Made by a program: the position numbers and the translations under genes. The notes beneath the pieces were generated by a model, which did not search any database, had not been told where the DNA came from, and saw nothing but the letters and a program-made list of their open reading frames with translations. Shown piece after piece: positions 29,807-49,630 of a stretch of DNA of 64,000 nt (position 1 is its first letter; each line of letters starts with the position of its first letter). The DNA comes from Paracoccaceae bacterium (GTDB lineage Bacteria > Pseudomonadota > Alphaproteobacteria > Rhodobacterales > Rhodobacteraceae), in the NCBI GenBank assembly GCA_020628545.1, contig JAHDEX010000005.1:29401-93400 (forward strand). The letters are read 5' to 3'.

Positions 29807-29903
29807 ATTGCCTTCGAAACGGGCCGTTCAACGCCTCTTGTAGTATCAGCACATCAGCGCGGTGCTGATGAAAGGGCGCGGAGGGAGGATCGGAGGACAA
29901 ACC

Positions 29904-32223: not shown

Positions 32224-32243
32224 TTATGCGAAAATAGGCATAA
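32224..32243. promoter_or_regulatory. Inverted repeat TTATGC-N8-GCATAA at the LysR start (candidate LysR-type box)
   Basis: Read directly in the 92-bp mmsA/LysR divergent region. The right arm ends at the A of the LysR ATG (32243). Confidence 0.35.
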
Positions 32244-34089: not shown

Positions 34090-34147
34090 GTCATCCTCCC
34101 GCAAAAACAGGTGCCGCCCGTTACCGGACGGCACCTCCTGGTTCCGA

Positions 34148-35203
34148 TCAGGTCCGTGTCTTGACGCCACCCGATCGGCGGCTGGCCACGGTGGTCAGGA
34201 TCGCGGCGATGATGATGACCGCACCCGTCGAGGCCTGGACGTAGAAGCTTGGCACCTGTGCCAGGGTCAGCAGGTTGTTGATCACGCCGATCAGCAGCAC
34301 GCCCGAGACGACACCGACAATCGTTCCGCGTCCGCCGCCAAGGCTGACCCCGCCGATGACTGCTGCGGCGAAGGCCGAGAAGATGATCCCCTGGCCTTGG
34401 GTTGTAACCGCCGAGTCGAGGCGACCCGTCAGAAGGATACCGGCGAGACCAGCGAGAAGACCGGCGAAGAAGAAGGCCGACCAGATCATGCGATCCACAT
34501 TGATGCCAGCAGCCCGCGCCGCGTCTTCGTTGCCGCCGATAGCATAGAGCGCCCGGCCGTAGCGGTGATACTTGAGCACCAGCCCCACAACCGTCGCCAC
34601 GATCAGGAAGACGAAGACCGCCATGGGAATCCCGGCAATCTGGGCCGAACCAAGCCATGTCAGCGACTCGCCCGGCGAGTAGATCGACCGCCCGTTCGAG
34701 ATGATCAGAATACCACCGCGCAACAGGACCAGGAGTCCGAGCGTCGAGATGAAGGGATTGAGTCCGACCTTCACAACAAGGAACCCATTGAAAAGCCCGA
34801 TCAGACCGGCGCAACCAAGCGCTACGATCAGGCCCATCCATTGCGGTAGCTCGACCCCGAAACCGCCCGCAGCCGCGGGCACAAGCATCACGGCGGCCAG
34901 CATCGGAGCAAACCCGACGACGCCTTCAAGGGAGAGATCCAGGCGTCCGATCAGCAGGACAAACGTCAGCCCGATGGTCGTCAGACCCAGCACGCTGACC
35001 TGCTCGAGGATGTTGATGATGTTGATGAAGGACAGGAAACGCGGCGCGATGAATGCGCCCACAATGATCAGGAGCAGCAGGACCGGATACATCGTCCAGC
35101 CGCCCGCCACGAAACCATGTCCGAAACGCGCCAGCGCCGATTGCCCGTCTGCAGCCATCTTCTTCCCCCCGTGCCCCTCGGGCACTCCAATTTCCATGGT
35201 CAT
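34148..35203 (-). CDS. Sugar ABC transporter permease (CUT2 / ribose-type)
   Basis: Polytopic, with RbsC-like motifs (..NILEQVSVLGLTTIG.., ..DLSLEGV..). The ATG overlaps the ATPase stop (ATGA). An alternative start is at MAADGQ. Confidence 0.85.
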   Translation of the reverse strand: MTMEIGVPEGHGGKKMAADGQSALARFGHGFVAGGWTMYPVLLLLIIVGAFIAPRFLSFINIINILEQVSVLGLTTIGLTFVLLIGRLDLSLEGVVGFAPMLAAVMLVPAAAGGFGVELPQWMGLIVALGCAGLIGLFNGFLVVKVGLNPFISTLGLLVLLRGGILIISNGRSIYSPGESLTWLGSAQIAGIPMAVFVFLIVATVVGLVLKYHRYGRALYAIGGNEDAARAAGINVDRMIWSAFFFAGLLAGLAGILLTGRLDSAVTTQGQGIIFSAFAAAVIGGVSLGGGRGTIVGVVSGVLLIGVINNLLTLAQVPSFYVQASTGAVIIIAAILTTVASRRSGGVKTRT

Positions 35204-36681
35204 GTTGCGCCCTCCATATGCAATATCAGGTCTTCCATGCGGTAGTCTCCGACCATTTCGTCGACGATCCGGTCTTCGAACACGATCACCACACGGTTTG
35301 CGAGTTGCGAGATTTCGTCCTCTTCATCCGAGACGACGATCACCCCGAGCCCCTTGCTCGCGAGATCGCGCAAGAGGGCATAAAGCTGTTCCTTGGCGCC
35401 CACGTCGACGCCGCGCGTCGGACTTAGGGCCACGATGATCTGCGGGTCGCGACAAAGCGCACGCGCAAAGACCACCTTTTGCTGATTTCCGCCGCTCAAC
35501 TGGCTGACGGCCTGATCGAGCGAAGAGGCAATGACATCTGTCTGCCGGGTCAGGCGGTTAACGAGGCTGTCCTCCTTCGCTTTCGAAATGAACCCAAAGT
35601 TGCCTGACAAGACTTCGAGACCGCCAAGCGCCACGTTTTCGCGAACGCCGAGGATGCCGACATAGCCGCTGGCATGACGATCGGTCGGGACCAAGCCGAT
35701 GGTCGGCAAAGCGCCATTCGGCCCGCTGACCTGTCCGCTAGCAGGCGCTTGTTGACCGGCCAGCACCATCGCGAGGTCTTCCTTGCCGCTTCCGACAGGG
35801 CCTGCCAGCGCAATGATCTCGCCCGGACGCACATCGATGTCGATCTTCGGTCTGTCGGGCTTCAATTGAACCTGTCGCGCCGACAGGAGCGGGGCCGCGT
35901 CGCCGAAAGTGTGATCCTCACGTGCGCTGCGGGTCGTTTTCTCGCCCATCATCAGGTTGGCGAGCGTTTCCGTATCAAGCCCCTCGACCGAGGCGCGGGA
36001 TTTCACAACCTGACCATCCCGCAGGATCGTCACGGTGTCCGCAATCTCGAAAATCTCGTCGAGATGGTGCGAGATGTAGACGAAGGACACACCGGCAGTT
36101 TTCAGCAACTTGACCTGATCGAACAACACCCGCTTCTCGGCATTGCTGAGGGCCGCCGTAGGCTCATCGAGAATGATCACCGGGACACCCCGGCTGAGCG
36201 CCTTCATGATTTCCAGAAGCTGACGCTGTCCTGCACCCAGTTCCCCGGCGAGATCGCTCGGAGCAATATCCATGTTCCAGTCGCGCATGAGCTTCTCGGT
36301 CTTCTCGATCATGCGCGTGTAGCTGACCATGCCCCAGCGATTGCGGACCAGGTCGTTCTCGAGGAAGAGGTTCTCGGCCACCGACAGCAGGTCGAACATC
36401 TGCGGCGTCTGCTGCACATGGGCGATGTCGCCCCGGATGCGCGCCGCGTAGCTGCTGCCGTCGACATTGAATTCTGTGGAGGCGATGCGGATCGTGCCTG
36501 TGTCGGCGGGCGTGTAGCCGCTCATCGCTGACACTAGGGTACTCTTCCCGGCACCGTTGCGTCCGAGGAGGGCGTGGATCTCGCCCTCCTCCAGGGTGAA
36601 GTCGACATCGCGAAGCGCACGCGTGGAGCCGAAGGTCTTGGAGATGCCGCGCATCTCTACGATGGGTCTGATCTGTTCCAT
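35200..36681 (-). CDS. Sugar ABC transporter ATP-binding protein (duplicated ABC domains, CUT2)
   Basis: 493 aa with Walker A GRNGAGKST, signature LGAGQRQ and Walker B IILDEP. The second domain has GPVGSGKE, LSGGNQQK and VVSDEE. Confidence 0.9.
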   Translation of the reverse strand: MEQIRPIVEMRGISKTFGSTRALRDVDFTLEEGEIHALLGRNGAGKSTLVSAMSGYTPADTGTIRIASTEFNVDGSSYAARIRGDIAHVQQTPQMFDLLSVAENLFLENDLVRNRWGMVSYTRMIEKTEKLMRDWNMDIAPSDLAGELGAGQRQLLEIMKALSRGVPVIILDEPTAALSNAEKRVLFDQVKLLKTAGVSFVYISHHLDEIFEIADTVTILRDGQVVKSRASVEGLDTETLANLMMGEKTTRSAREDHTFGDAAPLLSARQVQLKPDRPKIDIDVRPGEIIALAGPVGSGKEDLAMVLAGQQAPASGQVSGPNGALPTIGLVPTDRHASGYVGILGVRENVALGGLEVLSGNFGFISKAKEDSLVNRLTRQTDVIASSLDQAVSQLSGGNQQKVVFARALCRDPQIIVALSPTRGVDVGAKEQLYALLRDLASKGLGVIVVSDEEDEISQLANRVVIVFEDRIVDEMVGDYRMEDLILHMEGAT

Positions 36682-36705
36682 GGCCTTCGCCTCCCTGCGC
36701 GTTGC

Positions 36706-37725
36706 TTACATGCCGATCTTGTTGGCCCAGAGATCGTCCGAGTCGACGTTGTCAGACGTCACCAGCGTCGCATTGAGCTGGTACTGCGGACCAACAGGCG
36801 TCTCGACGACGCGACCGTCATCCTTCTGGCCGATCTCGATCGTGCCGCCGCCCATGACCAGTTCGATCAACTCGGCCGTCTTTGTCGCGTAGGCGCTCAG
36901 CGGCTGCGAGACGGTGGCATCGAGGGCGCCTTCGCGGATCAGCTGCAGGCCCTGGGGCGTGCCGTCGATTGCGATGCGGATGACGCTTTCGGGATCGCCA
37001 ACCTCGGCACCGCGACCAGCGCGCTTCAACTGCGCATTCACCGCCGTCGCCATCAGTTCGGACGCCATGAAGACGCCGTCCAGGTCAGGGTTCTGTGTCA
37101 GCACGTTCTGGGTCGCATCGGCGGCCATGTCGGCGGTCCACTCTGTCGGACGCTGGATGATGGTGACGTCCGGCGCCAGCTCAGCCAACGTGTCGGCAAA
37201 GCCGTTTGAGCGGTCGAGACCGTTCGGTGTGGTCAGCCCGCCCTGCAGCTCGAGGACCGTGCAGGATTTCGCGGCCCAGCAGGCGTCGTTCTGAAGACGG
37301 CGTGCCATCTCCTCGGCGCCCTGCGCACCGGCGTTGACGTTGTCGGCGCGTACCGTTGCGGTCACCTGGCCGCCAGCCGGGCTATCGTCGATCGAGAAGA
37401 CAAGCGCACCGGCGTCGTTGGCCCGCTTGACCGCCGGAACGATACCGGCCGCGTCGATGGGTGCGAAGACAACGACATTCGCACCGTTGGCGATGAGGTT
37501 CTGCAGCGCGTCAACCTGGGCCGCGATATCGCCGTTCGGATCAGGCGCGCCCACCAGCTCGAAGCCTTTGGCATCGAATGCAGCCTTGGAGAGATCCAAC
37601 ATCAGAGTCTGGAAGTCATCCTTCAGAAATTTCGGTGTGAAGCCGACCCGGACGTCGTCCGCGAAGGCGGCTCCTGCGGCGAGTGTGATGGCGCCTGCAA
37701 GTGCGGTGGTCGTGAAGTAGTTCAT
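36706..37725 (-). CDS. Sugar ABC transporter periplasmic substrate-binding protein
   Basis: Signal peptide MNYFTTTALAGAITLAAGAAFA/DD. It has an RbsB/LacI-type periplasmic binding fold pattern and is the first gene of the transporter operon. Confidence 0.85.
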   Translation of the reverse strand: MNYFTTTALAGAITLAAGAAFADDVRVGFTPKFLKDDFQTLMLDLSKAAFDAKGFELVGAPDPNGDIAAQVDALQNLIANGANVVVFAPIDAAGIVPAVKRANDAGALVFSIDDSPAGGQVTATVRADNVNAGAQGAEEMARRLQNDACWAAKSCTVLELQGGLTTPNGLDRSNGFADTLAELAPDVTIIQRPTEWTADMAADATQNVLTQNPDLDGVFMASELMATAVNAQLKRAGRGAEVGDPESVIRIAIDGTPQGLQLIREGALDATVSQPLSAYATKTAELIELVMGGGTIEIGQKDDGRVVETPVGPQYQLNATLVTSDNVDSDDLWANKIGM

Positions 37726-37819
37726 GGTCTTTCTCCTCCAGTGTGGTTGCCCCGGCGCTCCCGAACCAAGGCGGGTCTATCGGCCGTCGCTTTGCAAAGC
37801 TTGTTGCGACTCGACGGAA

Positions 37820-37867
37820 TTGTCAACAAAATTTGCTATATGTTATATTTTGCAATTTTCATTGTTA
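37820..37867. promoter_or_regulatory. AT-rich promoter region with two TGCAA-N6-TTGCA-like operator half-palindromes (upstream of the ABC operon)
   Basis: TGCAATTTTCATTGTT lies at 37851..37866. On the other strand AGCAAATTTTGTTGAC lies at 37821..37836. Both sit within an AT-rich island in an otherwise GC-rich sequence. Confidence 0.5.
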
Positions 37868-38848
37868 TACTTGCCTGACTTGCGACGCTGAAAACCGAAT
37901 TTCTTGTGCATTTACAACAAGCTCCGGATTTAGCAGCCCGTCGAAAAAATCCAGAATGTTCTGCGCTGATACAACCGCCATGCGCTCTGCGCATTCGGCA
38001 GTCATGCTTGCCGAGTGCGGCGTCAGCGTCGCCGACGCACACGTCGTCAACCGATTGGCTATCGTCGGCGGTTCATCGACAAAGACGTCGAGCCCTGCGC
38101 CATGAATGCGCCCCTGCAATAGAGCATCTGCGAGTGCGGCTTCGTCGATGCTTCCACCGCGTGCGGTGTTCACGAGAACGGCCGTTGGTTTCATGAGCGC
38201 GATCTCACGCTCTCCAATCAGAGGCTTGTTTGTCCTCGGCACATGAACAGACACCAAATCCGCGTGGGCCAAGGCTTCATCGAGACTGTCTACCACGGTG
38301 ACGCCCAGTGGCGCCGCCTGAGACACGTAAGGATCGTAGGCGATCACCTCGATGTCGAAGCCCCGCGCCATGCGCGAGAGATGGCGCCCAATTCTGCCAA
38401 GACCGATGATCAACAAGGTCTTTCCGGCAACTTCCCGGGCCGACAGACTGTTGCGGAATCCCCAGTCGCCACCAGGGCGGGTGGCCCCATCATATTTGAT
38501 TAGGCGTCTGCTGGCGGACAGCAACAAGAGCATCGCATGCTCGGCAACAGTTTGGGCATTCACGTCGCCGACGATGGCCAGCGGGATACCGCGAGAATTC
38601 AGCGCACCGACATCGACCGCGTCGAAGCCGACGCCATGGCGCGACACCATGGCGAGCTTTCGGCTCTTGGCGATGGCCGCCGCTTCGAAAGGCTGCGTTC
38701 TGAGAAGCACGGCCGTTGCGTCGGCGAGATAGGGCTCCATGGACGCTTCGCTGATTTCCTCGACATAGTCGATTTCGAAATCACTGCGTGCTTGCAGAAG
38801 CGCGAGACCGCTGTCGTGCAGTTTTCCGGCAACAAGAACACGTGCCAT
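37865..38848 (-). CDS. D-isomer-specific 2-hydroxyacid dehydrogenase (glycerate DH / hydroxypyruvate reductase-like)
   Basis: 327 aa with the NAD motif GKTLLIIGLGRIGRHL. The catalytic-domain pattern is ..VNTARGGSIDE.. and ..LTPHSAS.. The start lies 1 nt after the aldolase stop. Confidence 0.85.
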   Translation of the reverse strand: MARVLVAGKLHDSGLALLQARSDFEIDYVEEISEASMEPYLADATAVLLRTQPFEAAAIAKSRKLAMVSRHGVGFDAVDVGALNSRGIPLAIVGDVNAQTVAEHAMLLLLSASRRLIKYDGATRPGGDWGFRNSLSAREVAGKTLLIIGLGRIGRHLSRMARGFDIEVIAYDPYVSQAAPLGVTVVDSLDEALAHADLVSVHVPRTNKPLIGEREIALMKPTAVLVNTARGGSIDEAALADALLQGRIHGAGLDVFVDEPPTIANRLTTCASATLTPHSASMTAECAERMAVVSAQNILDFFDGLLNPELVVNAQEIRFSASQVRQV

Positions 38849-38849
38849 C

Positions 38850-39668
38850 TCAATACCCCGCTTGTTCGAGTTCTTCGTGCTCGGACGCCTGATCGCTGGC
38901 CATCGCCCGCGCCTGTTTGACAGTGCGCGAAGCCTCAGCGGCCAGCAGCCTGACGTCGTTCGACAAGGTCACCATGTCGAAGCCCCAGTTCATCGCCCTG
39001 GCGGCGTAGTCCGGCGTCCCGCAGTGCAGCGCGGCGCGGATACCTGCCGCCTTGGCCGCGTCCCGGATCCGGTGGATCGCCGCAATCATCTCGGGCTCTT
39101 TGCGATCAAACCCCGGCGGCAAGGCGCCGTCCGACAGGCCCAGCGTCAGATCGGCAGGGCCGATATAGACACCGTCGAGGCCAGGCGTTCTGACGATCTC
39201 GTCGAGGTTCGCCATCGCCTCTGCGGTCTCGATCATCGCGAAAGCCAGCATCTCCCCATTGGCCTCGGCAGCGTATCCCTCCCCGGCGGAAAAATTCGCC
39301 CGCGTCGGGCCGAAGCTGCGCGTGCCAAGCGGCGGATACCGCATGTAGCTGACCAGCCGCTCCGCATCGGCACGCGTGTTCACCATCGGGCAAATGATCC
39401 CGTAAGCCCCGGCATCCAACGCCTTCATGATCGCGCCCGGATCGAGCCAGGGAACCCGCGCCATCGGCACAACGCCCGAGGCCCGCATCGCCTGCAACAT
39501 CCCGAGCGCGCCCTCATAGCTGACCGCCCCGTGCTGCATGTCGATCGTGACGCTGTCGTAGCCTTGCGCAGCCATGATCTCGGCCACGAAGGGTGAGTTG
39601 ATCGAGAGCCAGCCATTGATCGTCGGCTGTCCGGAGGCCCATTTCGTCTTGAGTTCGTTCTTGATCAT
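38850..39668 (-). CDS. HpcH/HpaI-family class II (pyruvate-type) aldolase
   Basis: 272 aa; ..NGWLSINSPFVAEIMAAQGYDSVTIDMQHG..MARVPW..ALDAGAYGIICPMVNT..RYPPLGTRS.. matches the HpaI/GarL/YfaU family layout. Confidence 0.85.
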   Translation of the reverse strand: MIKNELKTKWASGQPTINGWLSINSPFVAEIMAAQGYDSVTIDMQHGAVSYEGALGMLQAMRASGVVPMARVPWLDPGAIMKALDAGAYGIICPMVNTRADAERLVSYMRYPPLGTRSFGPTRANFSAGEGYAAEANGEMLAFAMIETAEAMANLDEIVRTPGLDGVYIGPADLTLGLSDGALPPGFDRKEPEMIAAIHRIRDAAKAAGIRAALHCGTPDYAARAMNWGFDMVTLSNDVRLLAAEASRTVKQARAMASDQASEHEELEQAGY

Positions 39669-39679
39669 GCCGCGTGCCT

Positions 39680-41116
39680 TCAGAAAACCGATTGTGTGAG
39701 TTTGGTGTCGAGATATTCGGCGATACCCTCGGTCCCGCCTTCGCGGCCAAGACCCGAGAATTTGGTGCCACCGAACGGCGCTTCCGCCGCTGCCAGCGCA
39801 AAGCTGTTGATCCCGACCATCCCCGCCTTGAGCGCCGCCGACACACGTCGCGCTCGCGCTGCATCCTTGGTGAAGGCGTAGGCAGAAAGCCCCATGTCGC
39901 AGGCGTTTGCGCGGGTGAGCGCCTCGTCTTCGTCCTCAAAGGATGTGATCGCGGCGATCGGACCGAAGTTCTCTTCACTCATGGCGGTCATGTCATCGCG
40001 CACATTCGTCAGAACCGTTGGCTGAAAGAAGAAGCCCGTGTCCCCGACAGCCTTGCCCCCGGTCAGGAGTTCCGCCCCGCCAGCCACGGCATCCGCGACC
40101 ACGGACGCAATCTCATCACGACGCTTCTTGTTGATGAGCGGGCCCATGGCCGACGCAGGGTCCAGCCCGTCACCGAGCTTCAGCGCCGCAGCGCGTTTGG
40201 CGAAACCGTCGACAAAGGCATCGTGCAGCGAGGCATGGACGAAGAACCGATCGGGCGTCACGCAGACCTGGCCCGCATTTGCAAACTTCGTCGCGACCGC
40301 CACGTCCAGAGTTGCCTCCAGATTGCAATCCTCGAAAGCGATCAGGGGCGCGTTGCCGCCAAGTTCCATCGACACCTTTTTCAACGTGTCGGCGGCGTCC
40401 CGGATCATCTGCTGGCCGACGCGGGTCGATCCGGTCAGAGACACTTTTCGCACCGCCTTTGAGGCCATCAACGGGGTATAAGTCGTCGACGTCGGCCCGA
40501 CGATCAGCGCAACCGCCCCTTCCGGCAGCTCTCCTGCCCGCACGCAGTCGACCAGCACCATCGCAACGCCAGGCGTTTGGGACGAGGGGCGGCAGATGAC
40601 AGGGCAGCCGGCGGCCAGTGCTGGCGCGACCTTCCGGGCGACCAACGCCGCGGGGAAATTCCAGGCGGTAAAGGCCGCGACGACGCCGACAGGCTCCTGG
40701 CTGACGTGGAACTCGCCTCCCGGCACACGCGAGGGGACAATCCGACCGGTCAGCCGACGTGCTTCCTCGGCGTACCAGCGGAACTGGTCGACGGCGAGCG
40801 CCCACTCCCGGCGCGATTGCGCAATCGGCTTGCCGGTCTCAACCGAGATCATGGTCGCCGCCTCATCTTCCCGGCGCTTCATTTCGTCGGCGATACGATG
40901 AAGTCGATCCGCGCGCTCCCAGCCGCCCTGGGAGGATAGCGCTGGAAGCGCGCGTTCGGCAGCGGCAATCGCCGCTTCAGTGTCTTCGATGGTCGCCGGG
41001 CGGTAGGCCCCGACGGGCTTTTCGGTCACCGGGCTGATCACTGGCGTGCTGCCATCAGCTCCACCGATCCAGGTGCCCGCGATGAAATTTCCGAAAGGTT
41101 CGTAAAGTGACATCAC
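39680..41116 (-). CDS. NAD(P)+-dependent aldehyde dehydrogenase
   Basis: 478 aa with ALDH landmarks ..FTAWNFP.., ..ELGGNAP.. and ..GQVCVTPDR.. (catalytic Cys). The start overlaps the iolG stop by 4 nt. Confidence 0.88.
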   Translation of the reverse strand: MMSLYEPFGNFIAGTWIGGADGSTPVISPVTEKPVGAYRPATIEDTEAAIAAAERALPALSSQGGWERADRLHRIADEMKRREDEAATMISVETGKPIAQSRREWALAVDQFRWYAEEARRLTGRIVPSRVPGGEFHVSQEPVGVVAAFTAWNFPAALVARKVAPALAAGCPVICRPSSQTPGVAMVLVDCVRAGELPEGAVALIVGPTSTTYTPLMASKAVRKVSLTGSTRVGQQMIRDAADTLKKVSMELGGNAPLIAFEDCNLEATLDVAVATKFANAGQVCVTPDRFFVHASLHDAFVDGFAKRAAALKLGDGLDPASAMGPLINKKRRDEIASVVADAVAGGAELLTGGKAVGDTGFFFQPTVLTNVRDDMTAMSEENFGPIAAITSFEDEDEALTRANACDMGLSAYAFTKDAARARRVSAALKAGMVGINSFALAAAEAPFGGTKFSGLGREGGTEGIAEYLDTKLTQSVF

Positions 41117-42123
41117 GCGATCTCCGAAACTTGCACCAGCCGACCTTCGGCAAGTGACTTGTACGCGGCCTCAGCCAGGATCAGCGCCTGCCGCCCATCC
41201 TCGAAGCCGACCTCCGGCGCGGTGCCGTTCTCGACCGCGTCGACGAAGTAGTCGATCTGGGCGTTGAAGGCCTCGCTGTAGCGTTCGAGGAAGAAAAACT
41301 GGTAGGGAGCGGAAACCTCGGTCGTGGTCGCCGAATGGGTCCGCATCTCGTGCGGTTTCCTGTTGTCGGACAGCGCCATCCCCTTGGAGCCCAGGAGCTC
41401 GACCCGCTGGTCATAGCCATAAACGGCTGTGCGCGAGTTGTTGATGTGGCACTGCTTGCCACCCTCGGTGCGCATGATGATCATGGCACTGTCGATCTCG
41501 TTCAATTCTGCGCCAAGCTCCGGATCGATCAGCGCCCCTGCAACCGCAAAGACCTCCTTCACTGGGTCGTCCCCCAGCATGAAACGGGCCAGATCGAAGT
41601 CATGGATCGTCATGTCGCGAAGAAGACCGCCCGCGGCTTCCAGGTAAGCACGCGGCGGTATAGCCGGATCGCGCGAGGTGATGATCACCTGATGCAAATC
41701 GCCAATCGCCCCCTCCCGCATCGCGTCGCGCGCGGCCCGGTGGCCGGGATCGAAGCGGCGGTTGAAGCCGAGCTGGATCGGAACACTGGTCCCGGCGATC
41801 TTCTCGGCGCAGGCGTTGACGCGACCGAGGTCGAGATCGATCGGCTTCTCGCAAATCGCGGCTTTGCCGGAGGCGACAGCCATCTCGATGTAATCTGCAT
41901 GTGTGGGCGTCGCTGTTGCGATAAGGACGGCGTCCACATCCTTCGACGCAAAGACATCCTCTGCGGTTGCGGCGATCTTCGCCCCCTCGCGTGCTGCAAC
42001 TGCCTCGGCGGCGGGCGCGTGGACATCATAGACCATGGCGAGCTTGGTCCGCGCATGCCGAGCGACATTCGCCGCGTGCATCTGCCCGATTCTCCCGCAT
42101 CCAAGGACCGCAATTCGCAACAT
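41113..42123 (-). CDS. iolG: myo-Inositol 2-dehydrogenase (Gfo/Idh/MocA family)
   Basis: MLRIAVLGCGRIGQMHAAN.. Rossmann N-terminus, EKP motif (AICEKPID) and IdhA-like length. It is divergent from iolD-iolE. Confidence 0.8.
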   Translation of the reverse strand: MLRIAVLGCGRIGQMHAANVARHARTKLAMVYDVHAPAAEAVAAREGAKIAATAEDVFASKDVDAVLIATATPTHADYIEMAVASGKAAICEKPIDLDLGRVNACAEKIAGTSVPIQLGFNRRFDPGHRAARDAMREGAIGDLHQVIITSRDPAIPPRAYLEAAGGLLRDMTIHDFDLARFMLGDDPVKEVFAVAGALIDPELGAELNEIDSAMIIMRTEGGKQCHINNSRTAVYGYDQRVELLGSKGMALSDNRKPHEMRTHSATTTEVSAPYQFFFLERYSEAFNAQIDYFVDAVENGTAPEVGFEDGRQALILAEAAYKSLAEGRLVQVSEIA

Positions 42124-42145
42124 TTATCGACCTCCCGAAGTGTTC

Positions 42146-42200
42146 TGCAATTTTTGTAGCAGCATCGCAATAAATGTTGCAAGAGATTTTTGTCGCAATT
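42146..42200. promoter_or_regulatory. iolG/iolD divergent promoter region with repeated TGCAA-N6-T(T/A)GCA operators
   Basis: TGCAATTTTTGTAGCA lies at 42146..42161 and CGCAATAAATGTTGCA at 42166..42181. A further TTTTTGTCGCAA half-site follows at about 42187..42198. Confidence 0.55.
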
Positions 42201-42238
42201 ATACGTTTTCAAACGACGCCGAAATTTGGGAGGTTCAG

Positions 42239-44110
42239 ATGACAGAAACAGTCCGTCTTACTATGGGTCAGGCGCTTGTGCGCTACCTGTGCAATCAGTT
42301 CACAGAGATCGACGGCGAGCACGTACCGCTCTTTGCCGGCGTCTTTGGAATCTTCGGGCACGGGAACGTCACCTGCATCTCCGAAGCCCTCGAACAGGTG
42401 CAGGACACTCTGCCAACCTGGCGCGGTCAGAACGAACAAAGCATGGCTTTGGCCGCAATCGGATATGCGAAAGCCAAGCAGCGCCGCCAGATAATGGTGT
42501 CACTCTCCTCGGTCGGCCCGGGCGCCACCAACATGATCTCAGCGGCAGGCGTGGCCCATGCCAACCGGCTCCCCGTTCTGCTGCTGGCCGGCGATACCTA
42601 TGTGAATCGTCTGCCTGATCCGGTCTTGCAGCAGGTTGAACACTTCGGAGACCCGTCGATCACCGTCAATGACGGCTTCAAGGCTGTATCGCGGTACTGG
42701 GACCGGATCGTTCACCCCGCGCAAATCCTGCAATCCCTGCCAAACGCGATCCGGACGATGCTCGACCCCGCCGATTGCGGACCCGCCTTCATCGGTCTGC
42801 CCCAGGACATCCAGGAAGTCGCCTATGACTACCCGGTCGCTTTCTTTGCCGAGAAAACCTGGTCGATCCCACGCCCCCGCCCCGCGAGGGACGAGGTCGC
42901 GAAGGCCGCCGAGCTGCTCAAGACCGCCAAGAAGCCTTTCATCATTTCGGGCGGCGGCGTGCGTTACTCGGGGGCTGGTGAAGCTTTGGCCGAGTTTTCA
43001 ACGAAACGCGGCATTCCCTTTACCGAGACAATCGCGGGCAAGGGCGCGGTCGTACATGACCACCCGGCCTATGTCGGCGCGATGGGCATCGAGGGTACCG
43101 AGGCGGCCCGCGAGTTGGCGGAGGCGGCCGACGTCGTCATCGCTATCGGAACCCGGATGCAGGACTTCACGACCGGCTCGTGGACGACCTTCTCCAAGGA
43201 CGCGAAGTTCATCAACATCAACGCGGCCCGCTTCGACGCCTCCAAGCATTTCGCGCAGCCTTTGGTGGGAGACGCGCTCGAATCGCTCACTGAACTCGAC
43301 GACGCCCTCGGAGACTGGAAAGCCGACCCGGCCCAGATGCAAATGGCACAGCAGCTCTACGCGGACTGGAACGCCTTCCTCGACGCCGAACAAGCGCCCT
43401 CCAATGCGCCTGTGGCGTCCTACGCCCAGGTGATCGGGGTCGTGAACAAGGCGGCCCGCGAGGTAGACACGATGGTCACCGCGGCAGGAGGATTGCCCGG
43501 CGAGACAGCCAAGAACTGGCGCGTGAAAGCCCCCAACACCTACGATCTGGAATTCGGGTTCTCCTGCATGGGCTATGAGATCGCCGGCGGCTGGGGCCAC
43601 GCAATGGCCAAGACCGACAAGGACGGCAATCAGACGGGTGTTCCCATCGTGATGGTGGGCGACGGCTCTTACATGATGATGAACTCGGACATCTATTCGA
43701 CCGTCCTGACCGGCCACAAGATGATCGTCGTGGTGTGCGACAACGGCGGCTTCGGCGTCATCAATCGCCTGCAGACCGGCATGGGCGTTCCGGGGTTCAA
43801 CAACCTCTTGAAAGACGCGCGTATCAAAAATCGCGAAGAACCGCTCCATGTCGACTTCGCGGCGCATGCCAAGGCCATGGGGGCCGAGGCGCGGCACTGC
43901 GAAAGCCTTGCCGATCTGGAAGCTGCAATGGAATGGGCGCAGACCACCGACCGCACAACTGTTCTGGTGATCGAATCCGACGCCCATGCGTGGACGGACG
44001 GAGGCGCCGATTGGTACGTCGGCGTGCCTGAGATCAATGAACGCGAAAGCATCCGTGAGGCCCGCGCCAGACAAGAGGCCTTCCGCGCCAAGCAACGGGA
44101 GGGCGTCTGA
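42239..44110 (+). CDS. iolD: 3D-(3,5/4)-trihydroxycyclohexane-1,2-dione acylhydrolase (ThDP-dependent)
   Basis: 623 aa from MTETVRLTMGQALVRYLCNQF.. ThDP motif GDGSYMMMNS..DNGGFG. SD GGGAGG precedes ATG 42239. The track ORF's 5' extension to 42035 crosses the promoter. Confidence 0.88.
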   Translation: MTETVRLTMGQALVRYLCNQFTEIDGEHVPLFAGVFGIFGHGNVTCISEALEQVQDTLPTWRGQNEQSMALAAIGYAKAKQRRQIMVSLSSVGPGATNMISAAGVAHANRLPVLLLAGDTYVNRLPDPVLQQVEHFGDPSITVNDGFKAVSRYWDRIVHPAQILQSLPNAIRTMLDPADCGPAFIGLPQDIQEVAYDYPVAFFAEKTWSIPRPRPARDEVAKAAELLKTAKKPFIISGGGVRYSGAGEALAEFSTKRGIPFTETIAGKGAVVHDHPAYVGAMGIEGTEAARELAEAADVVIAIGTRMQDFTTGSWTTFSKDAKFININAARFDASKHFAQPLVGDALESLTELDDALGDWKADPAQMQMAQQLYADWNAFLDAEQAPSNAPVASYAQVIGVVNKAAREVDTMVTAAGGLPGETAKNWRVKAPNTYDLEFGFSCMGYEIAGGWGHAMAKTDKDGNQTGVPIVMVGDGSYMMMNSDIYSTVLTGHKMIVVVCDNGGFGVINRLQTGMGVPGFNNLLKDARIKNREEPLHVDFAAHAKAMGAEARHCESLADLEAAMEWAQTTDRTTVLVIESDAHAWTDGGADWYVGVPEINERESIREARARQEAFRAKQREGV

Positions 44111-45006
44111 TGCCATCGGCGAAACTTGGCATCGCGCCCATCGCGTGGTGGAACGACGATCTGGAAGAACTGTCAGACGACGTGAGCCTCGACGAGTGCC
44201 TCAGGCAAGCGGCCGAGGCCGGGCTGACCGGCATGGAAACCGGGCGCCGCTTTCCCATGAACATGGACGAGCTTGGCCCTATCCTTGACCGGCACGGCAT
44301 CTCGGTCTGCGGCGGCTGGTTCTCCGGCCTGTTGCTTGACGGAGATATCGAAGCCGAGAAAGACCGCATCGCCGAACAGCATGCGTTCTTCAAAGCGGCT
44401 GGTGCTCCCTGCATCGTCTATGGCGAAACCGCGCGGTCCGTTCAGGGCGAGCGCCAGACACCTCTCGCCCAGAAACCCGTCATCTCGGAACCCGAGATGG
44501 CCGCCTACGGTCGCAAGATCAGCGATTTCGCCGACTGGTGTGCAACCGAAGGCATGCCGATCGCCTATCATCATCACATGGCCGCGGTCGTCGAAACCGA
44601 GGCCGAGCTTGATCTGCTGATGAAGCATTCCAGCGTGCCTCTGCTGTTTGATGCCGGGCACATGGCGTTCGCGGGCGGCGACAACTTTCGCGTGATCGAC
44701 AACCACCACGCCCGCATCACCCATGTCCACACGAAGGACATCCGACAAACCGTCATTGATAGCCTCGACCGCACAATCGAGAGCTTCCTCGATGCCGTCA
44801 TCAAGGGCGCCTTCACGGTCCCCGGCGATGGCTCGCTGGATTTCGAAGCCATCGTGAAGGCGCTGGCTGACAAAGGCTACGAGGGCTGGTTCGTCATCGA
44901 GGCGGAACAGGACCCGAAAGCCAACCCCCCGCTTGATATGGCCATCAAGGGCCGTGCGGAATTAAAGCGCGTCATGGACGCAGCAGGATACGAGGTAACG
45001 AAATGA
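44110..45006 (+). CDS. iolE: myo-Inosose-2 dehydratase
   Basis: 298 aa. The N-terminus ..KLGIAPIAWWNDDLEEL.. is the IolE hallmark. It has a xylose-isomerase-like TIM barrel. The ATG overlaps the iolD stop. Confidence 0.88.
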   Translation: MPSAKLGIAPIAWWNDDLEELSDDVSLDECLRQAAEAGLTGMETGRRFPMNMDELGPILDRHGISVCGGWFSGLLLDGDIEAEKDRIAEQHAFFKAAGAPCIVYGETARSVQGERQTPLAQKPVISEPEMAAYGRKISDFADWCATEGMPIAYHHHMAAVVETEAELDLLMKHSSVPLLFDAGHMAFAGGDNFRVIDNHHARITHVHTKDIRQTVIDSLDRTIESFLDAVIKGAFTVPGDGSLDFEAIVKALADKGYEGWFVIEAEQDPKANPPLDMAIKGRAELKRVMDAAGYEVTK

Positions 45007-45836
45007 ACCGCATCGATGGAAAAATCGCCGTTGTGACGGGCGGTACGCAAGGATTGGGCGCAGCCATCGCCCGCCGCCTCGCAGAGGCCGGGGCCGCAGG
45101 CATCGTGACCTGCGGGCGCGGCGTCGAGAAAGGCGAGGCCGTCGCCGCGACCATTCAGGCGGACACCGGCTGCAAGGTCGTCTTCCAGAAGGCCGACCTT
45201 GGAAACGTCGCGGACTGCAAGGCGGTGACGGCGCGGGCGGATGCCGAGTTCGGGCGGATCGACATTCTGGTCAATGCGGCAGGCATCACGGATCGCGGCG
45301 ACATCCTGCGGACAGACGAGGCGCTCTTCGACAAGATGTTCGCGGTCAATACACGCGGCCCGTTCTTCCTGATGCAAGGCGCGATCGAGATCATGATCCG
45401 CGAGGGCATCGAGGGCGCAATCGTCAATATCGGCTCCACGTCAGCACTCGCCGGTCAGCCGTTCATTTCGACCTATTGCGCATCAAAGGAGGCATTGGCG
45501 ACGTTCACACGCAACACCGCTTTCGCGGTCATGCGCAACCGCATCCGCGTTAACCAGCTCAACATCGGCTGGATGGCCTCCGATGGCGAGGATAAGACCC
45601 AGCGGGAATATCACGGCGCCGATGAGAACTGGCTTGAAAAGGTCGCGGCCGAGCAACCCTTCGGCCGCCTCCTGGCGCCCGAGGAAGTCGCCAAGGCAGT
45701 GAACTATCTGGCGTCCGAAGATGCGGGCATGATGACCGGGTCGGTCATCAACTTCGACCAGTCGGTCTGGGGCGGCTATCAGTTTGCGCCGCCGACGCCC
45801 GAGCGGGCGATGTCGCTGGAAGCTCAATACGGCTGA
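45003..45836 (+). CDS. Short-chain dehydrogenase/reductase (SDR), co-transcribed with iolD-iolE
   Basis: TGGTQGLG, NAAGI and YCASKEA (YxxxK). It overlaps the iolE stop (ATGA). Confidence 0.85.
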   Translation: MNRIDGKIAVVTGGTQGLGAAIARRLAEAGAAGIVTCGRGVEKGEAVAATIQADTGCKVVFQKADLGNVADCKAVTARADAEFGRIDILVNAAGITDRGDILRTDEALFDKMFAVNTRGPFFLMQGAIEIMIREGIEGAIVNIGSTSALAGQPFISTYCASKEALATFTRNTAFAVMRNRIRVNQLNIGWMASDGEDKTQREYHGADENWLEKVAAEQPFGRLLAPEEVAKAVNYLASEDAGMMTGSVINFDQSVWGGYQFAPPTPERAMSLEAQYG

Positions 45837-45884: not shown

Positions 45885-46784
45885 TCAGGGCGCACTGACA
45901 ACCGGAATGAGTGGCGCCTTGGGGGCAGAGCCATCCGCCTGACGCGCCGCCAAGCCCAGCATCAGAGCCTGCGCAAGACAGATGGGCGCGGCCAGTGAGC
46001 GCGAAAAGGCCTGCTCTCGCTCCGGAACCTCGAAGAGCACGTCGGCCGACTTGGCGAGCGGCGACAGCGTCGAATCCGAGATCGCAATGATCGGAATGCC
46101 CCGCGCAGCCACCTCTTCCGCCGTGTTGACGACTTCCTTGGCATAAAACCGAAACGACACCGCCAGGAGCACGTCGTTCTCGTCGATGACCTTTCCCATA
46201 TGCGTCGCCAAGCCGCCGGCGGCATCGATCAGAACCGCGCGCCGCCCCAGCATGGTCAGAATGTAGCGCAACAGGACAACGACCGGTTCCGACCGGAGCT
46301 GCCCGAAGAGATAGACGCAATCAGCGGCCTCGAGAAGATCGATGGCGCGATCCAGATCCTTCTCGTCGATGTCGGACACAAGCTGTTCTAGCGACGCCAG
46401 GTCGTTTGCAACGAGATCGAGAAGATGTCCTTTCACCCCGCTGTCGCCAGCCTCGGCCAACCGCGCCTTCATCTGCTCGGCACGCGTTTCAAACCCCGGC
46501 GCGGCGGTGTTCAGGCGCTGGCGGAAGATGCCCTGCAACTCCTTGAACCCCTTGTACCCGAAATGCTGCGCGAAGCGGACGAAACTCGACGGATGGACAC
46601 CCTGCTTCTCGGCAATGGAGTTCACCGAGTTCATCGCCACATCATTCGGATTCTGGGTCAGATAGACGGCAATCTGTTGATTGGTCTTGCTCAGATCGTC
46701 GTACTGCGCATGGATCTCCGTGATAAGAGCTTCGAAGCTCTCGGGTTGTTTTGTATCTGTGGACTGCATTCGTTTCATCTCCAT
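45885..46784 (-). CDS. RpiR/MurR-family transcriptional regulator (HTH + SIS); candidate IolR
   Basis: N-terminal HTH ..NSIAEKQGVHPSSFVRFAQHFGYKGFKELQ.. and a C-terminal SIS domain. Alternative ATG starts lie at 46778 and 46769. Confidence 0.85.
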   Translation of the reverse strand: MEMKRMQSTDTKQPESFEALITEIHAQYDDLSKTNQQIAVYLTQNPNDVAMNSVNSIAEKQGVHPSSFVRFAQHFGYKGFKELQGIFRQRLNTAAPGFETRAEQMKARLAEAGDSGVKGHLLDLVANDLASLEQLVSDIDEKDLDRAIDLLEAADCVYLFGQLRSEPVVVLLRYILTMLGRRAVLIDAAGGLATHMGKVIDENDVLLAVSFRFYAKEVVNTAEEVAARGIPIIAISDSTLSPLAKSADVLFEVPEREQAFSRSLAAPICLAQALMLGLAARQADGSAPKAPLIPVVSAP

Positions 46785-46795
46785 GCCGCAAGCAC

Positions 46796-46833
46796 TGCAA
46801 TTGCAACAACTGTATTGTGCAATTTTTGTTGCA
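46796..46833. promoter_or_regulatory. Operator candidates upstream of the RpiR gene: palindromes TGCAATTGCA and TGCAATTTTTGTTGCA
   Basis: TGCAATTGCA lies at 46796..46805. TGCAA-TTTTTG-TTGCA, with perfectly inverted arms, lies at 46818..46833. Both are directly 5' of the regulator's start. Confidence 0.55.
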
Positions 46834-47244: not shown

Positions 47245-48972
47245 ATGACCAAGCCAGACAAATCCAACCTGCCCAGCCGCCATGTGACCGAAGGACCGGC
47301 TCGTGCACCGCATCGGTCGTATTTCTATGCCATGGGTCTGGATGAGGAGGCGATTGCCCAGCCGTGGGTCGGCGTCGCGACCTGCTGGAATGAGGCCGCG
47401 CCGTGTAACATCGCTCTGAACCGTCAGGCGCAAGCGGTGAAGCTGGGCGTCAAGAAGGGCAACGGCACCCCGCGTGAATTCACCACCATCACCGTCACCG
47501 ACGGCATCGCGATGGGGCATGAAGGGATGCGCTCCTCCCTCGCGTCCCGTGAAGCCATCGCCGACACAGTGGAACTCACAATGCGCGGCCATTGTTATGA
47601 CGCGATTGTGGGTCTTGCGGGCTGCGATAAATCCCTTCCCGGCATGATGATGGCGATGGTGCGTCTGAACACGCCGTCTGTTTTCATCTACGGCGGATCG
47701 ATCCTGCCGGGCCGCTTGAACGGCAAGGACATCACCGTTCAGGACGTGTTTGAGGCTGTGGGCAAGCATCAGGCTGGTGCGATGTCGGACGCCGAACTGG
47801 AAGTCATCGAACGCGTGGCGTGCCCATCCGCTGGGGCTTGCGGCGGTCAGTTCACCGCCAACACGATGGCTTGTGTGTCAGAGGCGATTGGTTTGGCTCT
47901 CATGAACTCCTCCGGCGCGCCTGCGCCTTATGAAAGCCGCGACCAATACGGCATTGCCTCGGGCGAGGCGGTGATGAACCTGATCGCCAAGAACATCCGC
48001 GCACGCGACGTGGTCACCCGCAAGTCGCTCGAAAACGCAGCCCGCGTTGTCGCTTGTACCGGTGGTTCCACCAATGCCGGTCTGCACCTGCCCGCGATTG
48101 CGCATGAGGCGGGGATCGATTTTGACCTGTTCGACGTCTGCGACATCTTCAAAGACACACCATACTTCGTCGATCTGAAGCCCGGCGGCCAGTATGTGGC
48201 CAAGGACCTCTATGAGGTTGGCGGCGTACCTGTTGTGATGAAGGAACTGCGCAAGGCAGGGCTGATCCATGAGGATTGCATCACCGCATCCGGCCGCACG
48301 ATTGGCGAAGAGCTGGACATGATCGCACCAGAGGCCGATGGCCGCGTGATCTATCCCATCGACAATCCAATCACCAAAACCGGTGGCGTTGTGGGTCTCA
48401 AAGGCAATCTCGCGCCCGAAGGTGCGATTGTGAAGGTCGCGGGCATGTCCGAGGAGGAGCAATCCTTCACCGGCCCCGCCCGCTGCTTTGAAAGCGAAGA
48501 AGAGGCCTTCGCGGCCGTGAAAGCCCGCGCATACAAGGAAGGCGAAGTGCTGGTCATCCGCAACGAAGGGCCATCCGGTGGTCCGGGTATGCGGGAAATG
48601 CTGGCAACCACGGCGGCCCTGTCCGGTCAGGGCATGGGCAAGAAGGTGGCCTTGATCACCGACGGCCGCTTCTCCGGCGCGACACGCGGGTTCTGCGTAG
48701 GCCACGTCGGGCCAGAAGCGGCACATGGCGGTCCAATTGGTCTGCTGAAGGATGGCGACCAGATCACCATCAATGCGATCACCGGAGAACTGTCTGTCGA
48801 ACTGACTGATGATGAACTGGCAGAGCGCAAGGCGAACTGGGGCGGCGCGAAAGAGACAATCTATGCCTCCGGCGCACTTTGGAAGTTCGCAAAACTCGTG
48901 GGTGCGACGCGCTACGGGGCGACGACCCATCCGGGCGCGAAGGACGAAAAGCACATCTACATGGATCTGTAG
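47245..48972 (+). CDS. ilvD: Dihydroxy-acid dehydratase
   Basis: 575 aa with ..[14 protein letters not shown].. (CDK..PG cluster ligand region). The short-form IlvD layout is present throughout. Confidence 0.93.
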
Positions 48973-48981
48973 AGGTTGCGC

Positions 48982-49596
48982 ATGGCGACGTTTCGCCTGG
49001 CACATGTGGCGGCGCTTTGCGTCGCCGCCGCTTGCGCTGAGATCGCGCCTTCCGGGTCCGGGCTGTCGGTGACCTCTGCCGCGCTCTTTCGGGGAGAGAT
49101 CACCGCCGCAGCGCCGCCCAACTACTGTATTTCACCGGCAGCCAGCCGACCGGATACGGGCTTTGTCGTCATGGGACGCTGTGCTGCCGCGAGCCCGGTT
49201 GCAGCAGATGGATTCATCACCGTGCAAGTGGGCGGACCGGAAAGCGGGATCACGGCAAGCGACGCTGCCGACCTGCGTGAAATCCTTGTCAGCGACACCG
49301 GGCGCGCGTTTCTGAGTAGCGCTGGCAACGCGGATGCAATCTCCGTACAGGCAACCGAAGTGGAAGGCGACGCTGTCACCGTGCGGTTCCGGGACCGGGG
49401 GCCTGCGCCGGTGACCGGACTGGATCAGACCGAATGGCGCGGCTTCTTTGATGTGGAAGGGCGCCTTGTGACCGTTGCAGTACGCGGGTTAGCCGCCGCA
49501 CCCCTTGGAACGGACGACGGCGAAGTGCTCTTGGCGCGGACAATCGCAGCCTTGCGCCAGGCCAATCGCGGGGTGGTGTCTGCCACCAATAGTTGA
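48982..49596 (+). CDS. Hypothetical lipoprotein
   Basis: MATFRLAHVAALCVAAAC.. is a lipobox-like signal (AAAC). It starts 10 nt after ilvD (ATG 48982, or TTG 48976). No family recognised. Confidence 0.55.
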   Translation: MATFRLAHVAALCVAAACAEIAPSGSGLSVTSAALFRGEITAAAPPNYCISPAASRPDTGFVVMGRCAAASPVAADGFITVQVGGPESGITASDAADLREILVSDTGRAFLSSAGNADAISVQATEVEGDAVTVRFRDRGPAPVTGLDQTEWRGFFDVEGRLVTVAVRGLAAAPLGTDDGEVLLARTIAALRQANRGVVSATNS

Positions 49597-49630
49597 GAAC
49601 TGTTTCCTTTCTGGCAACTCTTTGGCAGAT

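Follow-up and report, generated by a model that had tools for sequence, protein, structure and literature searches.

A widespread type-2 iol gene cluster in a Paracoccaceae bacterium, probably with an undescribed ATP-independent end of the inositol pathway

Background

Soil, plants and seawater are rich in inositols, whose catabolism affects the competitiveness of rhizobia and colonisation by enteric bacteria. In the canonical route, the 5-deoxy-D-glucuronate formed by IolD is converted to malonate semialdehyde by IolB (isomerase), IolC (kinase) and IolJ (aldolase), and to our knowledge the inositol pathway is regarded as fully mapped, the recent discovery of the IolC-DUF2090 protein aside. 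Here we analyse a 64 kb stretch of DNA from a Paracoccaceae bacterium (contig JAHDEX010000005.1, positions 29,401 to 93,400), called the window in what follows, with coordinates counted from its first nucleotide. It carries an iol cluster in which iolG is followed by genes for an aldehyde dehydrogenase (ALDH), an aldolase of the HpcH/HpaI fold (HpcH) and a D-isomer-specific 2-hydroxyacid dehydrogenase (2HADH), and it belongs to a widespread cluster type, here termed type 2, that probably has an undescribed, ATP-independent pathway end.

With the canonical pathway (IolG-E-D-B-C-J-A in Bacillus subtilis, iolCDEB in proteobacteria), the window has IolG, IolE, IolD, an RpiR-type regulator and an ABC transporter in common; malonate semialdehyde is an expected product here as well, and mmsA is adjacent. 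It differs in the presence of a gene for a short-chain dehydrogenase/reductase (SDR) after iolE and of ALDH-HpcH-2HADH after iolG, with no IolB, IolC or IolJ/DUF2090 in the 64 kb, and in an IolG/IolD/IolE/RpiR lineage that is 33-52% identical to the canonical copies of the same Rhizobium genome. The variant inositol pathway of Thermotoga maritima (IolG, IolM, IolN, IolO) likewise departs from the B. subtilis scheme; it diverges after the first oxidation and is not known to involve IolE, IolD or an HpcH aldolase. The non-phosphorylative oxidative sugar routes (Weimberg and Dahms pathways, the LRA1-4 rhamnose route, the Udh-GudD-KdgD-KGSADH uronate route) resemble our proposal in ATP-free oxidation to an acid, formation of a 2-oxo acid and subsequent cleavage or decarboxylation. 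As in the window, an ALDH related to alpha-ketoglutaric semialdehyde dehydrogenase (KGSADH) or succinate-semialdehyde dehydrogenase (SSADH) takes part in them; they form the 2-oxo group by dehydration, however, whereas the window has a conserved 2HADH and an entry substrate that would come from ring opening by IolD. The aldolases GarL, HpaI and RhmA (YfaU) share fold and Pfam family with the window aldolase. Their 4-hydroxy-2-oxo acid substrates are cleaved to pyruvate and either tartronate semialdehyde, succinate semialdehyde or lactaldehyde, the HpaI substrate being one carbon longer than the one proposed here, and their partner dehydratase or hydratase is not in the window cluster. Price et al. 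described in 2022 the IolC-DUF2090 kinase/aldolase fusion of proteobacterial iolCDEB operons, and not an ALDH-HpcH-2HADH route (PMC9007349).

No description of this gene combination, or of the intermediates predicted for it, was found in the searchable full-text literature, and a continuation of the iol upper pathway by oxidation without phosphorylation would be new in the sense of being undescribed there.

Results and Discussion

Gene content of the cluster and absence of canonical lower-branch genes

Gene identities in the window were taken from the listing of open reading frames (ORFs) and from Pfam and NCBIfam profile searches. The cluster comprises the following features.

37865-38848, minus strand: SerA-like D-isomer-specific 2-hydroxyacid dehydrogenase (PF02826 172 bits, PF00389 82 bits)
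38850-39668, minus strand: HpcH/HpaI-fold class II 2-oxoacid aldolase (PF03328 118 bits, cutoff 25)
39680-41116, minus strand: aldehyde dehydrogenase, SSADH/KGSADH-like (PF00171 510 bits)
41113-42123, minus strand: iolG, inositol 2-dehydrogenase of the type-2 lineage, first gene of the minus-strand operon (TIGR04380 396 bits, cutoff 355)
42124-42238: iolG/iolD divergent control region, with the inverted repeat GCAAT-N5-TTGC at 42167-42180
42239-44110, plus strand: iolD, trihydroxycyclohexane-1,2-dione acylhydrolase of the type-2 lineage (TIGR04377 811 bits, cutoff 715)
44110-45006, plus strand: iolE, inosose dehydratase of the type-2 lineage (TIGR04379 382 bits, cutoff 290)
45003-45836, plus strand: classical SDR oxidoreductase (PRK06198 416 bits, cutoff 240)
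45885-46784, minus strand: RpiR/MurR-family regulator (HTH_6 and SIS domains, profile matches), candidate type-2 IolR

The profile searches agree with a preliminary description of this DNA on the order iolG-ALDH-HpcH-2HADH, divergent from iolD-iolE-SDR, and the junctions as read from the sequence bear out the gaps given there of 11 nt between ALDH and HpcH and 1 nt between HpcH and 2HADH. The 4-nt overlap of iolG and ALDH (GTGA) stands with a GTG start; an in-frame ATG one codon later would reduce it to a 1-nt TGATG overlap. The ATGA overlaps described for iolD-iolE-SDR exist between iolE and the SDR gene, whereas iolD and iolE overlap by 1 nt (TGATG). All three upper-pathway proteins of the window, IolG, IolE and IolD, exceed curated equivalog cutoffs.

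Genes of the canonical lower branch were sought with an IolB query from a related locus (NCBIfam 313 bits, cutoff 205), an IolC kinase/DUF2090 aldolase fusion, likewise from a related locus (NCBIfam 694 bits, cutoff 600), and a second, divergent set of IolB/IolC/IolJ-like queries from a marine single-cell genome. In tblastn searches, two divergent IolB and two IolC sequences, the IolC-DUF2090 fusion and the IolJ-like aldolase gave no match in the 64 kb at E<=1e-5, and among the window ORFs covered by the Pfam and NCBIfam scans there was no match to PF04962, PF00294, PF01116 or PF09863. The absence of iolB, iolC and iolJ that had been noted for the block around the iol genes thus extends to the whole window; it is not a general property of the system, since canonical genes co-occur with the cluster in several genomes (see below).

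Conservation across genomes

Relatives of the aldolase number in the thousands, many of them about 70% identical; matches in species-representative genomes exceed 597, the relatives there being at most 71% identical. The identical aldolase protein occurs only on metagenome contigs of 1-2 kb. We compared 84 loci with an orthologous aldolase, in which genes were called by a self-trained codon model and families mapped by tblastn. In 51 of them iolD or iolE lies within 10 kb of the aldolase (iol-linked loci), and about 33 of the 84 orthologous aldolases are not near iolD/E. Within the iol-linked set, a 2HADH gene stands directly downstream of the aldolase in 40 loci and an ALDH gene directly upstream in 30, both together in 29; iolD is divergent in 44, and SDR, RpiR and iolG genes are present in 33, 30 and 25, respectively. 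The hosts include Rhodobacterales/Paracoccaceae, Rhizobiaceae, Labrys, Pseudomonas, Pantoea, Klebsiella and Spiribacter, often with the genes on plasmids or islands, and contigs that were retrieved independently have identical gene order. The juxtaposition is not due to chance, as this gene order recurs in dozens of unrelated genomes, and the neighbourhood iolG-ALDH-HpcH-2HADH to which the preliminary description had drawn attention proved to be a conserved cluster type. Because the type of transporter changes between taxa while the ALDH-HpcH-2HADH trio stays constant, the trio is tied to iolG, iolD and iolE and not to the transporter.

We define a type-2 iol cluster as contiguous ALDH-HpcH-2HADH genes divergent from, or close to, type-2 iolD/iolE, with an RpiR regulator. 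This is the arrangement of the window, and the same pattern is found in 29 of the 51 loci and in 9 complete replicons. The SDR gene occupies the position at which iolB follows iolE in canonical iolCDEB operons, and its product matches PDB 4NIM (370 bits), a Brucella 'versicolorin reductase' whose function is untested. An oxidoreductase of the GFO type resembling levoglucosan dehydrogenase (GFO373) often follows the 2HADH in iol-linked loci and is absent from the window. Several additional GFO/IDH/MocA and IolE-like genes accompany the cluster. The window, P. italicus, Pseudomonas, Klebsiella and Spiribacter have mmsA within the cluster or next to it. None of the complete Escherichia coli genomes carries the module.

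Several 'plasmid' records in PLSDB (NZ_CP069303.1 of 4.6 Mb, NZ_CP016452.1, NZ_CP038196.1 and others) are megabase replicons, that is chromids or chromosomes, with almost no gene table; they were checked by tblastn on the DNA and not by annotation. In a low-G+C marine single-amplified genome (SAG; locus L072, 761-4353), genes for an aldose epimerase, an IolJ-like aldolase, IolB and a stand-alone IolC kinase occur, with GFO, ALDH (39% identical to the window ALDH) and SDR-IolE divergent from IolG-HpcH alongside, and with no iolD within 10 kb.

A separate lineage, often on mobile elements

Rhizobium daejeonense KACC 13094 (loci L093 and L094) has a canonical and a type-2 iol cluster on different plasmids. 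The canonical one contains iolG, RpiR and iolC-iolD-iolE-iolB genes, and the other, on a conjugative plasmid, reads GFO-TIM-SDR-iolE-iolD divergent from iolG-ALDH-HpcH-2HADH-GFO-pyruvate carboxylase-RpiR-ABC, with no iolB or iolC. The window proteins are 71% (IolD), 83% (IolE), 63% (IolG) and 58% (RpiR) identical to the variant copies of this strain, whereas canonical and variant-lineage copies share 49% (IolD), 37-39% (IolE), 48-52% (IolG) and 33% (RpiR). Judged by these identities, type-2 IolG, IolD, IolE and RpiR form a distinct lineage. That each of the two R. daejeonense clusters has its own iolG, iolD and iolE matches the expectation for two alternative lower branches, and with both cluster types in one genome this strain is a natural test organism.

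Type-2 clusters also occur on the conjugative clinical plasmid pC9_001 of Klebsiella aerogenes (L096; SDR-iolE-iolD-RpiR divergent from ALDH-HpcH-2HADH-iolG-GFO-ABC, with ppsA and mmsA nearby), in R. leguminosarum Vaf-108 (L101) on an island that has integrases, IS elements and a group II intron at its borders, and as a cleanly bounded copy in Qingshengfaniella. The Klebsiella plasmid and R. leguminosarum island locations point to horizontal mobility. In 8 of the 9 complete replicons checked, no iolB or iolC was found within 20 kb on either side of the module, and such self-contained, mobile variant clusters without iolB/C nearby argue for independence from the canonical genes.

A candidate operator

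An inverted repeat, GCAAT-N5-TTGC, stands out as invariant columns in an alignment of iolG/iolD intergenic regions from five taxa. Only two exact copies are present in the window, one in the iolG/iolD control region (42167-42180) and the other, GCAATTTTTGTTGC, at 46819-46832 upstream of the RpiR gene; palindromic copies with one mismatch lie at 37794-37807 and 37852-37865, upstream of the gene for the transporter's binding protein. With one-mismatch sites counted in, the total number of copies does not exceed chance, and only the placement of the motif, before all three transcription units, is suggestive. On this pattern we regard GCAAT-N5-TTGC as a candidate operator of the type-2 RpiR regulator.

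The enzymes of the module

The window aldolase remains under all equivalog cutoffs, reaching 30-40% of each (HpaI 148/369 bits, RhmA 131/441, GarL 117-125/393-407). Its best solved relative is SwHKA, with 222 bits and about 52% identity over 253 residues, compared with 113-126 bits for RhmA, HpaI and GarL. SwHKA, from Sphingomonas (Rhizorhabdus) wittichii RW1 (PDB 6R62 and others), accepts hydroxypyruvate, a property ascribed to aromatic side chains in place of a conserved Leu, F210 being in contact with C3 of hydroxypyruvate (PMC10099721). Residue numbers were matched after correction of a one-residue offset in the stored SwHKA sequence. Residues H46, R71, E147 and D173 of the window aldolase align with H44, R69, E145 and D171 of SwHKA and are invariant in 83-84 of the 84 orthologues; metal ligands, catalytic residues and the equivalent of Ser116 are common to both enzymes, and by this alignment the catalytic residues are intact. 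A neighbour-joining tree places the iol-linked aldolases in a broad clade, among which some members from outside iol clusters are interspersed.

The best NCBIfam match of the ALDH is to the SSADH subfamily (TIGR01780/GabD), at 465 bits below the cutoff of 646, and its best PDB matches are SSADHs and KGSADHs (345-379 bits). PGAP labels its orthologues 'NAD-dependent succinate-semialdehyde dehydrogenase' and names the cluster genes generically. The 2HADH, too, lies below equivalog cutoffs (phosphoglycerate dehydrogenase 253/454 bits, glyoxylate reductase 195/455, GhrB 143/492), with phosphoglycerate dehydrogenases and glyoxylate reductases as best PDB matches.

Two further genes were considered for a place in the pathway and set aside. 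GFO373 as an alternative oxidase of C1 is absent from the window and usually accompanies the ALDH instead of replacing it; as it shares about 40% identity with the GFO gene located after iolB in the canonical cluster, it is more likely an inositol-isomer dehydrogenase. The ilvD gene (47245-48972) as a missing dehydratase passes the cutoffs for housekeeping ilvD and is not conserved beside other clusters.

Proposed pathway

The IolD product has the structure OHC-CHOH-CHOH-CHOH-CH2-COOH, and the substrate of a class II aldolase must be a 2-oxo acid that carries a hydroxyl at C4. A route between the two can be drawn from the conserved genes. IolG would oxidise myo-inositol to scyllo-inosose as in the classical upper pathway, IolE would dehydrate the latter and IolD would open the ring to 5-deoxy-D-glucuronate. 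The SSADH-like ALDH would then oxidise the C1 aldehyde to give 5-deoxy-D-glucarate, whose C2 hydroxyl, by our own reading of the structure, has the D configuration required by a D-2-hydroxyacid dehydrogenase. Oxidation of this hydroxyl by the SerA-like 2HADH would yield 2-oxo-3,4-dihydroxyadipate, which the SwHKA-like aldolase would split between C3 and C4 into malonate semialdehyde and hydroxypyruvate. Malonate semialdehyde would be converted by MmsA to acetyl-CoA and CO2, and hydroxypyruvate would be reduced to D-glycerate, possibly by the same 2HADH. The three enzymes would map one-to-one on IolB, IolC and IolJ, with a carboxylate instead of a phosphate as the handle and hydroxypyruvate instead of dihydroxyacetone phosphate as the product. 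The acceptance of hydroxypyruvate by SwHKA would fit such a cleavage to hydroxypyruvate and malonate semialdehyde, and a family-invariant residue of the aldolase, His215, takes the position that in SwHKA is in contact with C3 of hydroxypyruvate. The hydroxypyruvate route would make use of conserved neighbours and need no dehydratase; the iol-linked clusters have a conserved 2HADH but no conserved sugar-acid dehydratase.

We therefore tentatively favour, while giving it rather less than an even chance, a type-2 regulon under an RpiR-family repressor with a kinase-free, oxidative lower branch via hydroxypyruvate, in which all substrates are those that we infer. The fuller form of this proposal, possible and attractive if somewhat more doubtful than not, is that the mobile type-2 cluster encodes a complete ATP-independent route from inositol to central metabolism, sufficient for growth on inositol without IolB, IolC and IolJ and involving three undescribed activities. 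These would be a 5-deoxy-D-glucuronate dehydrogenase, a 5-deoxy-D-glucarate 2-dehydrogenase and a 2-oxo-3,4-dihydroxyadipate (or 4-hydroxy-2-oxoadipate) aldolase, and the proposed carriers would be hundreds of marine, rhizosphere and enteric proteobacterial species. If this is true, three new functions would be obtained for genes that at present carry the wrong labels 'succinate-semialdehyde dehydrogenase', 'aldolase/citrate lyase family' and 'hydroxyacid dehydrogenase', and pathway-gap predictors would need correction, since such genomes would score as inositol-negative. It would also explain the occurrence of iolD/iolE without iolB/iolC in many clusters, and give a natural role to the SwHKA-like aldolase family used in biocatalysis.

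Alternative interpretations

A number of observations weigh against this proposal and are gathered here. The composition of the module varies: in loci L003, L019, L053, L057, L075 and L076 the aldolase occurs with the SDR only, and the SDR is always present where the aldolase occurs without 2HADH and ALDH. The aromatic residue typical of SwHKA is replaced in the window aldolase, in which His215 occupies the column of F210, the residue in contact with C3 of hydroxypyruvate; His is found there in 82 of the 84 orthologues. Two relatives of SwHKA (65-75% identity) have genes of aromatic or amino-acid catabolism as neighbours and not iol genes; as both contexts are unrelated, the genomic surroundings of SwHKA were discarded as a clue to natural function.

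The co-occurrence with canonical genes leads to the possibility that the module is accessory, the main flux being carried by canonical IolB, IolC and IolJ encoded elsewhere in the genome. In that case the module, along with the SDR and additional GFO oxidoreductases, would handle ring-opened products of other cyclitols or stereoisomers that are not accepted by IolB/IolC, or serve in detoxification or salvage of 5-deoxyglucuronate overflow. Both sets of genes share one operon set in Paracoccus alcaliphilus, where iolD-iolE-SDR-TIM-GFO-iolC(DUF2090)-hyp-iolB faces iolG-ALDH-HpcH-2HADH-GFO in a single divergon, and in Spiribacter, where iolB and iolC-DUF2090 are in the same divergon as ALDH-HpcH-2HADH. 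They are also found together, on one replicon or on a sister replicon, in P. versutus and P. ferrooxidans, where some 11 kb separate iolB from the aldolase, in Acidiphilium multivorum (iolB about 16 kb away), in Jiella pelagia (iolB and iolC on the plasmid of the module) and in R. daejeonense. In loci L038, L058, L060, L068 and L074, from metagenome-assembled genomes (MAGs) and SAGs, IolB/IolC/IolJ genes adjoin HpcH-2HADH without an ALDH, and in L072 (SAG AG-337-C02) IolJ, IolB and IolC are kept beside SDR-IolE/IolG-HpcH, adjoining HpcH alone. A separate type-2 IolG/D/E lineage could mean a different substrate, and the extra GFO/IDH/MocA and IolE-like genes are typical of the conversion of isomers or derivatives. 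On the other hand, the clusters on plasmids and islands hold a full set for uptake, regulation and upper pathway but no iolB/C, and IolG, IolD and IolE pass equivalog cutoffs curated for myo-inositol. In P. alcaliphilus, type-2 IolD and IolE presumably make ordinary 5-deoxyglucuronate, because they are in an operon with iolC and iolB. On balance, a purely accessory role appears rather unlikely; even so, it would define, within a regulon that has been studied closely, a conserved module of four genes whose function is unknown.

Within 10 kb of the aldolase, ALDH and IolB/C/J genes are anticorrelated (1/29/7/14, Fisher p=0.006, phylogeny not being corrected for), a weak hint that ALDH and IolB are alternative consumers of 5-deoxyglucuronate. 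This association is inflated, because 10 kb flanks miss iolC/iolB in Paracoccus-type clusters, in which iolC starts 8.4 kb from the aldolase. Because Paracoccus, Spiribacter, Jiella, Acidiphilium and R. daejeonense have canonical iolB/iolC in addition to the module, the latter is a parallel or alternative branch, present beside the canonical one in some genomes, and not a proven replacement. The interpretation first put forward for this DNA is upheld in part, as regards linkage and absence of the canonical genes from the window, and not as regards their general absence.

A second alternative keeps the kinase-free branch and changes its product. Loss of water at C2/C3 from 5-deoxyglucuronate or 5-deoxyglucarate would lead to 4-hydroxy-2-oxoadipate, and cleavage of this to pyruvate and malonate semialdehyde, with 2HADH and SDR in side or salvage roles; the dehydratase might be a cryptic activity of type-2 IolE, which is 37-39% identical to canonical IolE, an IolE-like TIM-barrel protein that is encoded in many clusters or an unlinked enzyme. 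By our own reasoning, the stoichiometry of this version needs two oxidations only. It also draws on aldolase orthologues of 62-69% identity, among the interspersed members of the tree, that stand directly behind dehydratase genes outside iol clusters: behind an MR/MLE dehydratase in Agrobacterium and Mesorhizobium, as in A. cucumeris (L095, 7889-9837), and behind an IlvD-type dehydratase plus a 239-aa protein in Microvirga (L031/L083). The orthologues of L095 and L031/L083 are 66-69% identical to the window aldolase. Because of these positions, the family can serve 2-keto-3-deoxy acids, with release of pyruvate. Pyruvate carboxylase genes are linked to the cluster in 7 non-duplicate iol-linked loci, from P. 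italicus, Paracoccus MKU1, R. daejeonense, Pararhizobium, Rhizobium BG6 and two MAGs (L094 17003-20437, L005 19634-20812, L033 13245-13670, L008 2411-4288, L013 13554-14981, L099 and L100); the cluster-linked enzymes are 64-86% identical to the R. daejeonense copy, even across orders, and none is encoded in the window. The K. aerogenes plasmid has ppsA, along with mmsA, near the cluster. Nevertheless, a pyruvate carboxylase would be useful with a hydroxypyruvate product too, and the iol-linked clusters have no conserved dehydratase family: the window, L001, Qingshengfaniella and Klebsiella lack the TIM354 protein, and the ilvD of the window is, as noted, a housekeeping-type gene not conserved in other loci. 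Formation of pyruvate would moreover leave the 2HADH, the most tightly linked partner (40/51), without a role in the main line, and we consider this version unlikely.

Non-phosphorylative deoxy-sugar pathways such as those for L-rhamnose and L-fucose classically end with an aldolase and an ALDH, and an unrelated pathway merely lying beside the iol genes, in which the ALDH oxidises the aldehyde released by the aldolase from a 2-keto-3-deoxy sugar acid imported by the adjacent ABC system, would also suit those orthologues that are away from iolD/E, but it is very improbable given the translational coupling of the module to iolG, the divergent iolD in 44 of the 51 loci, the independence from transporter type, the lack in the cluster of a set of sugar 1-dehydrogenase, lactonase and dehydratase, and the candidate operator common to the cluster units.

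Other features of the window

The genes between the module and the left flank of the cluster are the following.

30653-32150, minus strand: mmsA/iolA, CoA-acylating malonate/methylmalonate semialdehyde dehydrogenase, frameshifted (tblastn)
32243-33142, plus strand: LysR regulator, divergent from mmsA
33127-34170, minus strand: aldo/keto reductase (AKR; weak AKR-family matches)
34148-37725, minus strand: CUT2 ABC transporter (profile matches), made up of the next three genes
34148-35203, minus strand: CUT2 permease
35200-36681, minus strand: CUT2 two-domain ATPase
36706-37725, minus strand: CUT2 substrate-binding protein

The block of about 17 kb that had been described as holding the CUT2 transporter, AKR, mmsA, RpiR and LysR genes does contain all of them, but mmsA is frameshifted and the AKR gene is probably a separate unit. 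In mmsA, two tblastn segments in different frames are 72% and 64% identical to MmsA of P. italicus, and the gene is split by a +1 frameshift in a run of eight G (around 31402-31409), where seven would restore the reading frame; this may be either a homopolymer sequencing error, a recent pseudogene or a phase-variable site. A gap of 139 nt separates the 2HADH gene from the transporter, whose substrate-binding protein gave only weak ribose- or allose-type matches in the PDB, from which no ligand was deduced. Directly after the permease stop, and within the annotated 5' end of the AKR ORF, lies a strong terminator-like hairpin (34109-34136, minus strand) with a 12-bp stem, 9 GC pairs and a following T run. 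Given this hairpin, the AKR gene probably starts further downstream and is probably a transcription unit of its own; it is loosely linked to the cluster. An AKR orthologue is present in only 4-5 of the compared loci.

The flanks of the window are made up of ordinary chromosomal genes (phaAB, ETF-QO, accD, folC, ilvD, map), and no tRNA gene was found in the 64 kb. A phage-integrase-family ORF of 224 aa is located just outside mmsA (29862-30536), and the G+C content of 0.61-0.64 over 34-46 kb is slightly higher than the 0.57-0.60 elsewhere; integrase ORF and G+C shift may mark the edge of an acquired island. Downstream of ilvD, a DUF6478 protein (351 bits) is encoded at 49505-50449.

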